Below are positions 38,559-45,329 of a stretch of 64,000 bases of DNA, piece after piece (position 1 is the stretch's first letter; each line of letters starts with the position of its first letter). The notes beneath the pieces were generated by a model. It was not told the origin of the DNA. It searched no databases and saw only the letters and a list, made by a program, of their open reading frames with translations. Source of the stretch: Candidatus Woesearchaeota archaeon (GTDB lineage Archaea > Nanobdellota > Nanobdellia > SCGC-AAA011-G17 > JAFCDX01); contig JAFCDX010000002.1 in NCBI GenBank assembly GCA_017609465.1, positions 11,881 through 75,880 on the forward strand, read 5' to 3'. A program made the position numbers and the translations under genes.

Positions 38559-39077
38559 TTATTTAGAATAAATAACTTTCTCATTGATTTTTGATATTAC
38601 TGGAGAAGAGAATTCATAATTTTTAAAAATTCCATCAACAGATGATAAAAATACATCTACATTTTCAACATTGTCTTTCCATTGATATTTTAATTTTCTA
38701 ATAAATTTTTCATAATCTTTTAAATCTTCATGAAGAGAAATAATTAAATCTGTCTTACTTCCAACTCCTTCTCCCTTAACAAATAAGATAATCTCTGGCA
38801 GTGATTTTATAAATTTAATTGTTGCTTCTAATTCTTCTGATTTTGAATAATCTCTCCATCTGTATAAAACAACTGCCTGAAGATTTAAACCAATTTTTTC
38901 AAAATCAATTAACGAAGTATAACCCTTTATTATGTCTTTTTTCTCTAATTTTTTTCTAATTTTTAATATTGTAGGTCTTGAAGTTTTTAGTTTTCTTGCT
39001 ATTTCTTGGTCTGATATTTTACAATTTTTAATTAATTCTTCTAATACTTGCTTTTCTCTTAATGTTAGATTTATCAT
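38559..39077 (-). CDS. Lrp/AsnC-family transcription regulator
   Basis: N-terminal HTH (LREKQVLEELIKNCKISDQEIARKLKTSRPTILKIRKKLEKKDIIKGYT) plus a C-terminal RAM-like alpha/beta domain. Confidence 0.7.
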   Translation of the reverse strand: MINLTLREKQVLEELIKNCKISDQEIARKLKTSRPTILKIRKKLEKKDIIKGYTSLIDFEKIGLNLQAVVLYRWRDYSKSEELEATIKFIKSLPEIILFVKGEGVGSKTDLIISLHEDLKDYEKFIRKLKYQWKDNVENVDVFLSSVDGIFKNYEFSSPVISKINEKVIYSK

Positions 39078-39086
39078 AATTTTTAT

Positions 39087-39136
39087 TAGATACTATATGC
39101 TATATAAATTTTACTAATTATTACATATAGTATCTA
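39087..39136. promoter_or_regulatory. Perfect 13-bp inverted repeat bracketing a TATA box (candidate operator)
   Basis: TAGATACTATATG (39087-39099) and its exact reverse complement CATATAGTATCTA (39124-39136). The 24-nt spacer contains TATATAAAT (39101-39109), 24-32 nt upstream of the Lrp start at 39077. Confidence 0.55.
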
Positions 39137-39161
39137 TTTTTTAATATTTTAGGAAAAAAAG

Positions 39162-39170
39162 TATATAAAT
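39162..39170 (+). promoter_or_regulatory. Candidate TATA box of the groES-groEL operon
   Basis: Second copy of TATATAAAT. It predicts a transcription start near 39195, just before the AAGGAGG at 39204. Confidence 0.35.
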
Positions 39171-39240
39171 AGTAATGTATTAAACAAATTTGAAAACAAA
39201 AATAAGGAGGATTAAATTGATTAATTATTTATTTCAGCAA

Positions 39241-39299
39241 AAGGAAGCTTTTAAGACTCCTTCGCTGGAAATGCCAAGGAATAGCTTAGGAGCTTCCTT
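39241..39299 (+). promoter_or_regulatory. Imperfect 59-nt hairpin in the groES leader
   Basis: AAGGAAGCT (39241-49) pairs with AGCTTCCTT (39291-99). Inner pairs are TTTAAG/CTTAGG, TCCTT/AAGGA and TGG/CCA around an AAATG loop. The hairpin ends 27 nt before the groES ATG. Confidence 0.45.
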
Positions 39300-39325
39300 T
39301 GATTGTTAATCAATGTAACAAGAAA

Positions 39326-41219
<1,894 letters not shown>

Positions 41220-41245
41220 AATAATTGAAAGGAGGTAAAAATAAA

Positions 41246-41698
41246 ATGTTTGAAGATATATTTGAGGAAATGAGAAGGCTTCAAAATGAAATAAATAGAA
41301 GTTTTGGAGACTTTTGGGAAAGTGATAGATTTAAAACTCTTCCAGATTACACCGGAAAGAAAAGAGCTTTAGCACTTAGAAGTCCTTTAACAGATTTAGA
41401 AGAAACTGATAAAAATATAATTGCTAAGTTTGAAATGCCTGGTGTGGATAAAAAAGACATTCAACTTAATATAACTGAAGACAAGATTGAAGTTAAAGTT
41501 GAAAAGAAACAAGAGGCTAAAGTTGAGAAAAAAGGATTTTACAGGGAAGAAAGAAGCTATAGAGGATTTTATAGAGCAATGGCTCTACCAAGCAATGTAA
41601 TTCCTGAAAAAGCTAAAGCAAAATATAAAGATGGAATCCTTGAAGTCACAATACCAAAAGCTAAAGTCAAGAAGAAAAACAAAATTGAAATTGAATAA
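41246..41698 (+). CDS. hsp20: Small heat-shock protein Hsp20/alpha-crystallin
   Basis: Start set at ATG 41246, after a GGAGG. Alpha-crystallin core (PLTDLEETDKNIIAKFEMPGVDKKDIQLNI...GFYRAMALP...AKYKDGILEVTIPK). Confidence 0.85.
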   Translation: MFEDIFEEMRRLQNEINRSFGDFWESDRFKTLPDYTGKKRALALRSPLTDLEETDKNIIAKFEMPGVDKKDIQLNITEDKIEVKVEKKQEAKVEKKGFYREERSYRGFYRAMALPSNVIPEKAKAKYKDGILEVTIPKAKVKKKNKIEIE

Positions 41699-41741
41699 TT
41701 TTTTACTTAATTTTATTTTTTAATGTTCACATAAAAATACA

Positions 41742-42338
41742 ATGAAACAAGAAAAAATCCAAAGTTCAGAGAAAAAAGTAGAAAAGTTATCTGAAGAAAT
41801 AAATAATGAAAGTAAGAAAATAATCAAAGAAAAAGAAAAAATTAAGAATGGGGTTGAAGAACTGAAAAAACAATTAGAAGAATCTAAAAAATTAGCAGAA
41901 GAAAGATTAAATCAGATAAAATATTTACGAGCAGATATTGATAACTTGAGGAAAAGATTTGAGAAAGAGAAAGCAGAGGTTATTAAATCAGCAAATGACT
42001 CTTTGATAAAAGAACTACTAGTTGTTTTGGATGCTTTTGATGCAGCTATAAAAATTAGTGAGGGAGAAAGTAAAAAAGGATTGTTAATGCTTGAGAAAAA
42101 GTTTTTTGATATATTAGTAGAGCATGGATTAGAAGAAATTGAAGCAATAGGAAAGCAATTTAATCCAAATTTTCACGAGGCGTTATGCAATGAATTTAGT
42201 AAAAAACAAGATAATGAAGTTATTGAAGTAATTCAAAAAGGTTACACTTTAAATTCTAAAGTTATTAGGACAAGTAAAGTTAAAGTATCAAAAGGTTTAA
42301 AAAAACAAGATAGAATTGAAAATAATAAGGAGAATTAA
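41742..42338 (+). CDS. grpE: Nucleotide exchange factor GrpE
   Basis: Coiled-coil N-terminus, [16 protein letters not shown] block ([16 protein letters not shown]), FDPNFHEA-like block (FNPNFHEAL). Confidence 0.85.
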
Positions 42339-42339
42339 A

Positions 42340-44226
42340 ATGGCAGAAAAAACAAAAAAAGAAAAAATTATTGGAATTGATTTGGGAACTTCAAATAGTC
42401 AAGTATCTGTTGTAATGGGTGGCAAACCTACTATTATTCCTTCAGCAGAAGGAGCAACAGTAGCAGGAAAAATGTTTCCTTCAGTTGTAGCTTTCACTAA
42501 AGATAATCAATTATTAGTTGGAGAACCTGCAAGAAGACAAGCTGTTAATAATCCAGAAGGAACAATAAGTGCTGCAAAAAGAAAAATAGGAACTTCTCAT
42601 AAATATAAAATTAGAGGAAAAGAATACACTCCTCAACAAATATCTGCTTTTGTTTTGCAAAAAATAAAAAAAGATGCAGAAGAATTTTTAGGAGAACCAA
42701 TTAAAAAAGCTGTTATAACTGTTCCTGCTTATTTTAATGATAATCAAAGAACAGCAACAAAAGATGCTGGTAAAATAGCTGGTTTAGAAGTTGTTAGATT
42801 AGTTAATGAACCAACAGCAGCTTCAATGGCTTATGGACTAGACAAAGAAGGAGAACATAAGATTTTGGTTTTTGATTTTGGTGGCGGAACTCTAGATGTT
42901 ACTATAATGGAATTTGGCGATGGAACTTTTACAGTGTTATCAACATCAGGAGATACAAATTTAGGTGGAACAGATATGGATGAAACATTATTAAAAGATG
43001 TTGTAAAAAATTTTAAGGATAAAGAGGGAATTGATTTAAGTGAAGATGATTCTGCATTGCAAAGAGTTAGAGAAGCTGTTGAAAAAGCTAAAATTGAATT
43101 GTCAAGTGTTTTAGAGACAGAAATTAATCTTCCTTATATAACAGCTACTGACAAAGGACCTAAACATTTAAATGAAAAAATAACAAGGTCAAAACTAGAA
43201 AAACTAATCCAGCCAATTATAGACCAATGTAAAAAACCAATTGAACAAGCAATAAAAGACGCAAAACTAAAAAAAGAAAATATTGACAAGATAATTTTAG
43301 TTGGTGGACCTACAAGAATGCCTGTTATTCAAAAATTTGTTGAAGATTTTATAGGTAAAAAAGTTGAAAGGGGAATTGATCCTATGGAATGTGTTGCACA
43401 AGGAGCAGCAATACAAGGAGCTGTTCTTGCAGGAGATATCAAGGATTTAGTTTTATTAGATGTAACCCCATTAACTTTAGGAATTGAAACATTAGGAGAA
43501 GTTATGACTCCATTAATTGAAAGAAATACAACAATTCCTACTAAAAAAAGTCAGATATTTTCAACTGCAGCTGATTTTCAGACAGCAGTTACTATTCATG
43601 TTTTGCAGGGTGAAAGATCTATGGCAAAAGATAATACGAGTTTAGGAAATTTTAATTTAGTTGGAATTCCTCCTGCTCCAAAGGGAGTGCCACAAATAGA
43701 AGTTACTTTTGATATTGATGCTTCAGGAATTTTGCATGTAACAGCTAAAGATTTAGGAACTGGAAAAGAGCAAAAAATGACAATCACTGCTTCAACAAAA
43801 TTATCAGACTCAGAAGTTGAAAAAATGATTAAAGAAGCTGAAGAACATGCAGAAGAAGATAAAAAAAGAAAACAAGAAGTTGAAGCTAAAAATGCTTTAG
43901 ATTCATTGATTTATGCTTCAGAAAAAACTATTTCTGAATTAGGAGATAAAATTGATAAGGATAAGAAGAAAGAGATTGAAAAATCTTTAGAAAATGCTAA
44001 GAAGATTTTAGAAGAAGGGAATATAGATAAAATTAAAGAAGAAACTGAAAAATTGCAAAAAGTTGTTCAGGAAGCAGGATCTAAAATTTATGAAGAAGCT
44101 GCTAAAAAAGCTGCAGAAGAACAAGCAAAGGCAAAGACAGAAGTAGAAGATGAATCTAAAGAAAAGAAAGAAAAAGGAAAAAGTGATGCAGTAGATGCAG
44201 AGTATGAAGTTGAAGAAGATAAATAA
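42340..44226 (+). CDS. dnaK: Chaperone DnaK (Hsp70)
   Basis: Start set at ATG 42340 ([20 protein letters not shown]), after an AAGGAGA. Has [27 protein letters not shown]. Confidence 0.95.
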
Positions 44227-44273
44227 GTTTTAAAAATATAACCTCTCTTTTTTTAATATATTAATTACTCAAA

Positions 44274-45329
44274 ATGCCAAAAAAAGATTATTATAAAGTA
44301 TTAGGAATAAACAAAGATTCTTCTCAAGAAGAAATTAAAAAAGCTTTCAGGCAGTTAGCAAGAAAGTATCATCCTGATGTTAATAAAGATGCTGGAGCCG
44401 AAGATAAATTTAAAGAGATAAATGAGGCATTTCAAGTTTTAGGCAATCCAGAGAAAAAATCTCAATATGACCAATTTGGAACATCAGCATTTAGTCAAGA
44501 AGATTTAAGAGGTTTTAGAAACCAAAGATTTGACTTTGATGAGCTATTTAGAGATTTTGGTTTTGGAGATATTTTTGATATATTTAATTATGGCAGAAGA
44601 AGAGAAGATGAAAATTATGAAGAAGGTGTAGATTTAAGATATGACTTAGAGATTACTTTAGAAGATTCTTTTTATGGTATTGAAAAAACAATTAAGGTTC
44701 CTATTCATGAAATATGCAAAAGATGTAATGGACAAGGTGCTGAAGAAAAATATCTAAAAGAGTGTGATAAATGTGGTGGAAATGGAAAATTAAAAATTGC
44801 AAGAAGACAAGGATTTACGCAATTTGTAACAATAACATCTTGCGATAAATGTCATGGCAGGGGAAAGATTGTCTTTAAAGATTGTAATGTTTGTAAAGGG
44901 AAAGGAAAAATAGAAAAAATACAAAAAATAAATTTAAAAATTCCCAGAGGAGTAAATGACGGACAATATTTAAGATTAGAAGGCAAAGGAGGATTAGGTA
45001 AAAATGCTCCTTCAGGAGATTTATATGTTGTTGTTCATATAAAAGAGCATCCTGTATTTAACAGAGAAGATGAAAATTTATTTTTAGACAAAAAAATTGA
45101 TTTAACAACTGCAATATTTGGCGGAAAAATTGAAATAAAAAATATTGATAAAAAAATAAATTTAAAAATTCCTGGTGGAACTCAAAGCCATACTTCTTTT
45201 AGGCTTAAAGAGCAAGGTATGCCTTTATTAAATTCAAAACAAAGAGGGGATTTATTTGTTAGAATCATTGTTGAAATTCCAAAATTAAGTAAACTTAAAG
45301 AGAAGTTTTTTAAGAAGTTGTTTACATAA
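44274..45329 (+). CDS. dnaJ: Co-chaperone DnaJ (type I)
   Basis: J domain with the HPD motif (KYHPDVN), G/F-like linker, and four CxxCxGxG zinc-finger repeats ([32 protein letters not shown]). Confidence 0.9.

Follow-up and report, generated by a model that had tools for sequence, protein, structure and literature searches.

What is known of heat-shock regulation in archaea comes mainly from Phr/HSR1 and variants of the basal factors, and we know of no description of how archaea control chaperone systems gained by gene transfer from bacteria. Here we analyse a candidate for such control, an inverted repeat at 39087–39136 of a 64,000-nucleotide stretch (the window) from contig JAFCDX010000002.1 of a Candidatus Woesearchaeota archaeon. 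The repeat lies between the gene of an Lrp/AsnC-family regulator and a divergent operon of bacterial-type chaperone genes, groES-groEL-hsp20-grpE-dnaK-dnaJ. Its best explanation, which we hold with considerable confidence from comparative sequence analysis, is that it forms the operator of the adjacent regulator.

Lrp-type proteins bind semi-palindromes of 13–15 bp as dimers, their sites being clustered, imperfect and two to three helical turns apart, and both autoregulation and DNA wrapping are known for them (PMC2995911). The Ah-BarR octamer recognises three 15-bp sites within one intergenic region, where it acts as a repressor of its own gene and as an activator of the divergent one (PMC10201364). 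The present locus resembles that of BarR from Sulfolobales (PMC10201364) in that a regulator of Lrp fold diverges from its putative target and shares with it an intergenic region containing several predicted 15-bp semi-palindromic sites. It differs in the target, which is a chaperone operon here and an aminotransferase of amino-acid metabolism for BarR, in the half-site (GATAC here, TTGTA in BarR) and in the regulator itself, which has a conserved C-terminal extension of ~25 residues. With Ss-LrpB and P. furiosus LrpA (PMC2995911) it would share clustered imperfect boxes on one helix face, two to three turns apart, with one site placed between TATA and start, where LrpA blocks RNA polymerase recruitment, and one a few bp upstream of the transcription factor B recognition element (BRE), which is an activating position. 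In contrast to these systems, strong conservation is here confined to the outer halves, generating a long-range 40-bp symmetry, and the regulator appears dedicated to a single locus. The bacterial HrcA-CIRCE and HspR-HAIR systems follow a comparable logic of a self-contained heat-shock module in which groESL or dnaK operons are accompanied by a conserved inverted repeat and a dedicated regulator, but the protein family here is unrelated, the promoters are of the archaeal TATA/BRE type and the regulator mRNA is leaderless. The archaeal heat-shock repressors Phr and HSR1 are similarly winged-helix regulators acting at chaperone promoters and at their own; they differ in family and operator, and the targets here are a bacterial-type group I chaperonin and the KJE trio of DnaK, DnaJ and GrpE.

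The regulator gene and the intergenic region comprise the following elements.

38559–39077, minus strand: Lrp/AsnC-family regulator gene, 172 aa, leaderless (Pfam, PDB profile, AlphaFold2, Foldseek)
39087–39099, no strand: left arm of the inverted repeat, with core AGATACT at 39088–39094, between the regulator TATA box and start codon
39101–39108, minus strand: regulator TATA box TTTATATA, at -31 from the ATG, with a BRE-like GTAAAA at 39109–39114 on its upstream side
39124–39136, no strand: right arm of the inverted repeat, with core AGTATCT at 39129–39135, lying upstream of the BRE of the regulator, 33 bp from the chaperone TATA box that follows it
39152–39169, plus strand: chaperone-operon promoter, with a conserved GG at 39152–39153, an A-rich BRE and TATATAAA at 39162–39169

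As an earlier note on this DNA had claimed, TAGATACTATATG at 39087–39099 is the exact reverse complement of CATATAGTATCTA at 39124–39136, giving arms of 13 bp with no mismatch around a spacer of 24 nt (39100–39123); a repeat search reports the same arm pair and extends it to 18 nt at 89%. A repeat of this size is not significant on its own, since base composition predicts ~3.5 perfect inverted repeats with arms of at least 13 bp and spacers of up to 40 nt (0.291^13 x 801,308 x 41) in the 801-kb host assembly (801,308 bp, 29.6% GC) and 5 are found. Outside support is therefore needed, and on our comparison of sequences the reality of the site rests on conservation rather than on the 13-bp repeat itself. 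No regulator orthologue was found in the other 239 genomes of the host's GTDB order (240 in all), which holds one distant homologue, so that the comparison had to draw on other lineages. From 69 loci fetched from genome and metagenome collections, 40 non-redundant upstream regions were set in window orientation, anchored on the right core AGTATCT (39129–39135) and aligned without gaps.

Across these 40 loci the left core AGATACT is kept at high frequency (G 34/40, A 38/40, C 38/40, T 37/40), as are A39106 and A39107 of the regulator TATA box (38–40/40), TG at 39098–39099 (33–34/40, G39099 itself in 33/40) and T39122 (34/40), with C39124 present in 25/40. On the chaperone side the GG at 39152–39153 is conserved in 31–32/40, TATATAAA at 39162–39169 in 33–40/40 and G39172 in 32/40. 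Mean pairwise identity is 0.76 for the left core and 0.92 for the right core, the latter being inflated because the right core supplies the anchor columns. The stretches between elements lie at background identity (0.43–0.47) yet are constant in length: the two cores start 40 bp apart in 37/40 loci, the right core stands 33 bp from the chaperone TATA box in 37/40, and the regulator start codon is 53–54 nt from the right core in 36/40. Relatives that retain the gene pair but have lost the repeat had been proposed as the outcome that would speak against a functional site; instead, the core is kept wherever the pair is kept. The repeat is thus real, but the 13-mer is not the functional unit; that role falls to a core of 7 bp repeated at a pitch of 40 bp: a perfect arm of 13 bp occurs only in the window and in one other locus, and the median is 6–7 bp.

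The pattern of substitution bears on whether the repeat could instead be a hairpin, either as RNA in a 5' untranslated region or as a DNA cruciform, or a chance product of AT-rich DNA. The number of perfect repeats expected genome-wide lends some weight to the latter, and the near symmetry of the distal TATA box at 39162 means that, in principle, it could fire to the left. However, it is the sequence that is conserved and not the pairing. A or G replaces T39091 in nine loci, and ten loci have a change at A39090, without matching changes in the right core, and changes on both sides of the core are almost absent; such uncompensated changes in the left arm argue for a protein site rather than a hairpin. 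The hairpin or cruciform interpretation was rejected for this near absence of compensatory changes in the core, and the proximal TATA box moreover stands at the distance that is standard for leaderless genes in this genome. Conservation across 40 loci rules out chance. Overall we give next to no credence to either explanation.

The site is also singular. The 13-mer, with no mismatch allowed, is absent elsewhere in the window and in the whole 801-kb genome, so the further copies near other stress genes for which a search had been suggested do not exist in this assembly. The exact arrangement GATACT-N34-AGTATC occurs once in the host genome and once in each of four others carrying it (G241, G242, G244 and G291), abutting the regulator gene every time, and copies with one mismatch show no excess over controls in those four. 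Relaxing the spacing to GATACT-N28-40-AGTATC in the host genome gives 19 one-mismatch matches against ~46 expected, and isolated 15-bp boxes of the kind described below are not enriched either (13 against ~21 expected), which indicates that there is no wider regulon. With no additional copies in the genome, the regulator is, as judged from these counts, local and dedicated, serving one locus only.

Both promoters proposed in the earlier note are supported. TATATAAAT occurs in the spacer at 39101–39109, 24–32 nt from the regulator ATG, and again at 39162–39170. The first copy places the regulator TATA box at -31 from the ATG (-30 in most relatives), and the first base of that ATG is 39077 on the minus strand, with no Shine-Dalgarno (SD) sequence before it; the leaderless transcript is predicted to start at ~39077–39078. 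Among 600 long open reading frames (ORFs) of this genome, 83 have an exact TATA 8-mer at -29 or -30 from the ATG, the two positions where such boxes peak, and this accumulation suggests that leaderless mRNAs are the rule here, a geometry with which the regulator promoter agrees. With the TATA box at -31, the left core occupies about -10 to -22 in the regulator promoter and the right core about -50 to -58. The second copy, conserved at a fixed distance in relatives, predicts a plus-strand start at ~39191–39192, 12 nt before an AAGGAGG at 39204, so that, relative to the chaperone promoter, the right core sits at around -60. Promoters of this genome do not generally carry the combination GG-N8-TATATAAA.

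That the neighbouring protein belongs to the Lrp/AsnC family, as had been claimed, is upheld by four lines of analysis. HTH_24, a helix-turn-helix (HTH) model of Pfam, matches at 35.7 bits against a cut-off of 21.9. A profile of 24 orthologues searched against the PDB retrieves B. subtilis LrpC over residues 5–129 (E 3.6e-12), together with P. furiosus LrpA and other Lrp/AsnC structures. The AlphaFold2 model (predicted local distance difference test score 82.6) has three helices followed by a beta-alpha-beta-beta-alpha-beta domain, with strands at 66–74, 96–100, 110–116 and 137–146 and helices at 80–92 and 119–133, and a short C-terminal extension. Foldseek returns Lrp/AsnC folds for all of the best 42 matches, namely 38 regulators matched over the full length (E 1e-9 to 2e-5) and then four AhbA/B chains, and none of the best 50 is described as Phr or a heat-shock regulator; the sequence profiles likewise favour Lrp. 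On the basis of this model the regulator has an Lrp/AsnC fold, with both the winged HTH and the RAM-type domain in place. The Lrp, LrpA and AsnC models of NCBIfam match residues 7–79 at scores far below their equivalog cut-offs, which indicates a member of the family and not an ortholog of Lrp, LrpA or AsnC. Database homologues number 117, most of them 55–92% identical and named Pacearchaeota, Woesearchaeota or Nanoarchaeia. Genes for archaeal SecD/SecF and aTrm56 lie upstream of the locus (Pfam), and the host is an archaeon of DPANN type.

Several observations concern relatives of the regulator. Proteins of ~320 aa built from a tandem pair of Lrp-like units occur widely in the host order, with examples in the host genome (G000 C22:3817-4728 and C8:4591-5397) and in many relatives; they are the regulator's nearest relatives within the order, at 24–34% identity. 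Two regulator copies, G303:C1:489371-489877 and G337:C11:12864-13361, contain one in-frame stop each (TAA and TGA respectively) and may be decaying, or may reflect sequencing errors. The distant regulators of Aenigmatarchaeota (L066-L071 and L099, 34–38% identical) do not adjoin chaperones; they keep CCAGTATGTATT between TATA and start codon, the position of the left core in the window.

The association between regulator and chaperones is close. Of 46 non-redundant loci whose regulator reaches 55% identity or more and whose upstream DNA is long enough, 41 have a chaperone gene diverging from the regulator within 700 bp. The first divergent gene is groES in 23 loci, hsp20 in 12, grpE in five and a groEL-like gene in one, which suggests that the partner of the regulator is the chaperone operon, whatever gene leads it. 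In a sample of 151 genomes from one order the regulator is found in ten genomes, DnaK in 19 and GroEL in 23; all ten regulator genomes have DnaK and/or GroEL, nine of them on the same contig a few kb away, and the regulator occurs in 0/113 genomes that lack both. These counts are given without a probability because the sampled genomes are interrelated. At L058 and L060, regulator homologues 57–63% identical keep the operator and the second promoter, and the divergent gene is a 38-aa ORF, MLFEDDKGTLLTDEDVDRLSPWEIDLRKIHVHDQGFAA, not a chaperone. In L044, L056, L110 and L111 groES and groEL are 0.4–1.7 kb apart and not adjacent. The L043/L075 leader retains, between promoter and hsp20, a 19-codon remnant resembling the start of groES (MKIKPIKEKEKTFEEFII, closed by a stop), and comparison of these sequences suggests that hsp20-first loci arose through groESL deletion.

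The candidate site is best read as two, perhaps three, Lrp-type boxes 31 bp apart, modelled on known sites of the family (PMC2995911, PMC10201364), of which the first two are the following predicted elements.

39089–39103, no strand: box L, GATAC-N5-GCTAT, 15 bp; outer half strong, inner half weak and overlapping the TATA box
39120–39134, no strand: box R, ATTAC-N5-GTATC, 15 bp; outer half strong, inner half weak

Box L has its centre at 39096 and box R at 39127; a third box may be centred at 39158. GATACT and AGTATC would be outward-facing strong half-sites, each forming part of one 15-bp box, and the inner halves of this two-box arrangement would explain the conservation of G39099 and C39124. 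A perfect GATACTAATAGTATC stands at the box R position in L043, L072 and L074, and a position weight matrix (PWM) of the half-site detects an inner half-site at box R in 6/40 loci. The PWM also yields a third match, AAAGTATATA at 39158–39167, in 16/40 loci, 31 bp from the right core and over the chaperone BRE/TATA.

Our analysis supports a model in which the boxes, three helical turns apart, flank the BRE/TATA of the regulator's leaderless promoter. A dimer on box L, between TATA and the start site, would block recruitment of RNA polymerase and so repress the regulator's own gene; autoregulation through box L is quite likely in our judgement. Box R would sit 4 bp upstream of the regulator BRE, and the regulator would probably act as a DNA-wrapping oligomer, like BarR or Ss-LrpB. 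Such a complex would be held at a fixed 33 bp from the chaperone TATA box, with a weaker third half-site overlapping the chaperone promoter. From this constant distance and the third half-site we infer that the regulator also controls groES-groEL-hsp20-grpE-dnaK-dnaJ, and the sequence comparison makes control of the operon through the same complex likely. The binding and the autorepression are likewise inferred, as are the sign of operon control and its signal. Activation of the operon would follow the precedent of Lrp proteins in divergent pairs, while repression would follow heat-shock logic and the third site. The signal may be sensed through a heat-labile regulator, through titration by chaperones or through a small ligand.

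A number of points weigh against this interpretation. A single dimer could not span the 40 bp between the strong half-sites, so that the weak inner half-sites have to be invoked; box R has two mismatches to GATAC-N5-GTATC and box L is worse. The third site may be coincidental, since it overlaps a TATA box whose sequence resembles the half-site. In the protein, the HTH_AsnC-type model of Pfam scores 24.5 bits, just below its cut-off of 27, and the Pfam RAM-domain model has no match. Some closely related chaperone loci lack the regulator. Finally, the apparent co-change of protein and operator is drawn from sequence comparison within one lineage and two related loci, as set out below.

Control of the regulator gene alone would be an alternative account. 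In that case the site would serve only as the regulator's autoregulatory operator, the operon would be constitutive or controlled by other means, and the shared neighbourhood would reflect co-transfer. Both strong half-sites do flank the regulator's own TATA box, the right core ends 19 bp before the chaperone BRE/TATA, which the half-sites leave untouched, and a separate conserved leader RNA could carry regulation of the operon. Against this, the 33-bp distance from core to chaperone TATA is held in 37/40 loci although the sequence between is not conserved, the regulator stays beside whichever chaperone gene leads and, in the 151-genome sample, is confined to genomes having chaperones, and neither the conserved GG of the chaperone promoter nor its AGTATA, which resembles a half-site, would otherwise be explained. 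We therefore regard an exclusively autoregulatory site as unlikely.

The identity of the binding protein is a further consideration, as recognition by the adjacent regulator is a prediction and the genome holds other Lrp-like proteins, the tandem ~320-aa type. Binding of the half-sites by another transcription factor or a basal-factor variant is nevertheless highly improbable. The site exists only where the regulator exists, once per genome and abutting it; a groESL locus in G028 that has no regulator, inspected in detail, has no such site either. In addition, L057 and L059/L094 carry TTTACA...TGTAAA on both arms at the same 40-bp pitch, and their regulators alone have TSRQT where the others have TSRPT, at the point where the predicted recognition helix begins, so that both arms have changed together with a recognition-helix residue of this regulator. 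As these loci represent one lineage, the change counts as a single event.

Taken with its regulator and operator, the chaperone operon appears to have moved as a unit. From ~38428 to at least 45314 the DNA is 80–91% identical to that of G244 (L038/L114/L115), in which a ~5-kb insertion separates dnaK from dnaJ. The similarity stops ~130 nt beyond the regulator stop codon, the next 10 kb in G244 contain nothing else matching the window, and the flanks are unrelated. SecD is 45% identical to that of G244, compared with 58% to that of a same-family genome without the cassette. A similar cassette, a distant SecD and a host order otherwise without a regulator orthologue together suggest that regulator, operator and operon travelled jointly, and on this evidence the whole cassette, regulator included, appears to have been transferred laterally between DPANN lineages.

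The operon spans 39326–45329 on the plus strand and follows a leader with a conserved element of its own.

39227–39311 (within 39204–39318), plus strand: conserved structured RNA of the operon leader, 85 nt, supported by covariation and a covariance model
39326–39601, plus strand: groES (Pfam)
39603–41219, plus strand: groEL (Pfam)
41225–41698, plus strand: hsp20 (Pfam)
41742–42338, plus strand: grpE (Pfam)
42337–44226, plus strand: dnaK (Pfam)
44274–45329, plus strand: dnaJ (Pfam)

The two bacterial hallmarks of control over such an operon that had been reported missing are indeed not found. CIRCE (TTAGCACTC-N9-GAGTGCTAA) has no match in the window with up to three mismatches, and a search for HrcA (PF01628) in this genome, which is 89% complete, gives no match that passes the cut-off; the control genomes are positive. 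Scans for bacterial sigma-70 promoters and terminators were uninformative in this archaeal AT-rich DNA.

The leader element lies between the SD-like AAGGAGG at 39204 and the groES ATG and is separate from the inverted repeat. The region folds into a long hairpin (z = -3.6 for 39190–39340), whose co-varying stem is capped by an invariant core, GACUCCUUCGCUG.AAAUGCCAAGGAAC. Across 11 distinct copies, 23 pairs are kept, 11 of them with compensatory changes, and 93% of cells are paired compared with 84.5% in shuffles (0/500) and 38–68% with slid partners. The covariance model scores 75–101 bits in sense and less than 27 bits in antisense orientation; it detects the element in 13 loci, in this leader every time, with a single occurrence in the host genome, while Rfam gives no match on 38900–39500 even at E up to 10. 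The comparison of these copies confirms the leader hairpin as a co-varying RNA element. It precedes groES or hsp20, is reduced to the outer stem in L074 and is absent in close relatives. Where it precedes groES a strong SD stands upstream of the element and the groES ATG has none, whereas in its absence groES mostly has its own adjacent SD. Two other interpretations were rejected. A conserved peptide encoded by a leader ORF is not supported, as all three frames cross the 33-nt apical core in different loci and stop positions vary, which argues that the core is not coding. An upstream in-frame TTG for groES (39299) behind a hidden SD is not conserved in L038 or L046.

Conservation, synteny and protein fold thus support the proposal of the earlier note that a candidate archaeal-style control device has been placed on a bacterial-type heat-shock operon. 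These genes are reported in surveys of the protein families of DPANN archaea (PMC8204110) and, in 2026, of archaeal DnaK-DnaJ-GrpE (PMC12874294); a term search of both finds no mention of a regulator for them, and the literature searched links no Lrp-type regulator to archaeal chaperone operons. Since the protein, a 7-bp half-site, a fixed geometry and natural variants of operator and helix are in hand, the model is directly testable in vitro even though the organism is uncultured. In dozens of tiny DPANN archaea the regulator stands back-to-back with such an operon, and the pair is the first concrete candidate switch for these borrowed heat-shock genes. We tentatively put forward, as a possibility that may well need revision, that the locus represents an archaeal heat-shock switch not described before, in which a heat-labile or chaperone-titrated Lrp protein and its operator form a self-contained mobile module, with the leader RNA maybe providing a second layer. 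Regulator and operator could travel along with the operon they serve, and the module would let DPANN archaea plug a bacterial GroESL/Hsp20/KJE operon into archaeal TATA/BRE transcription.
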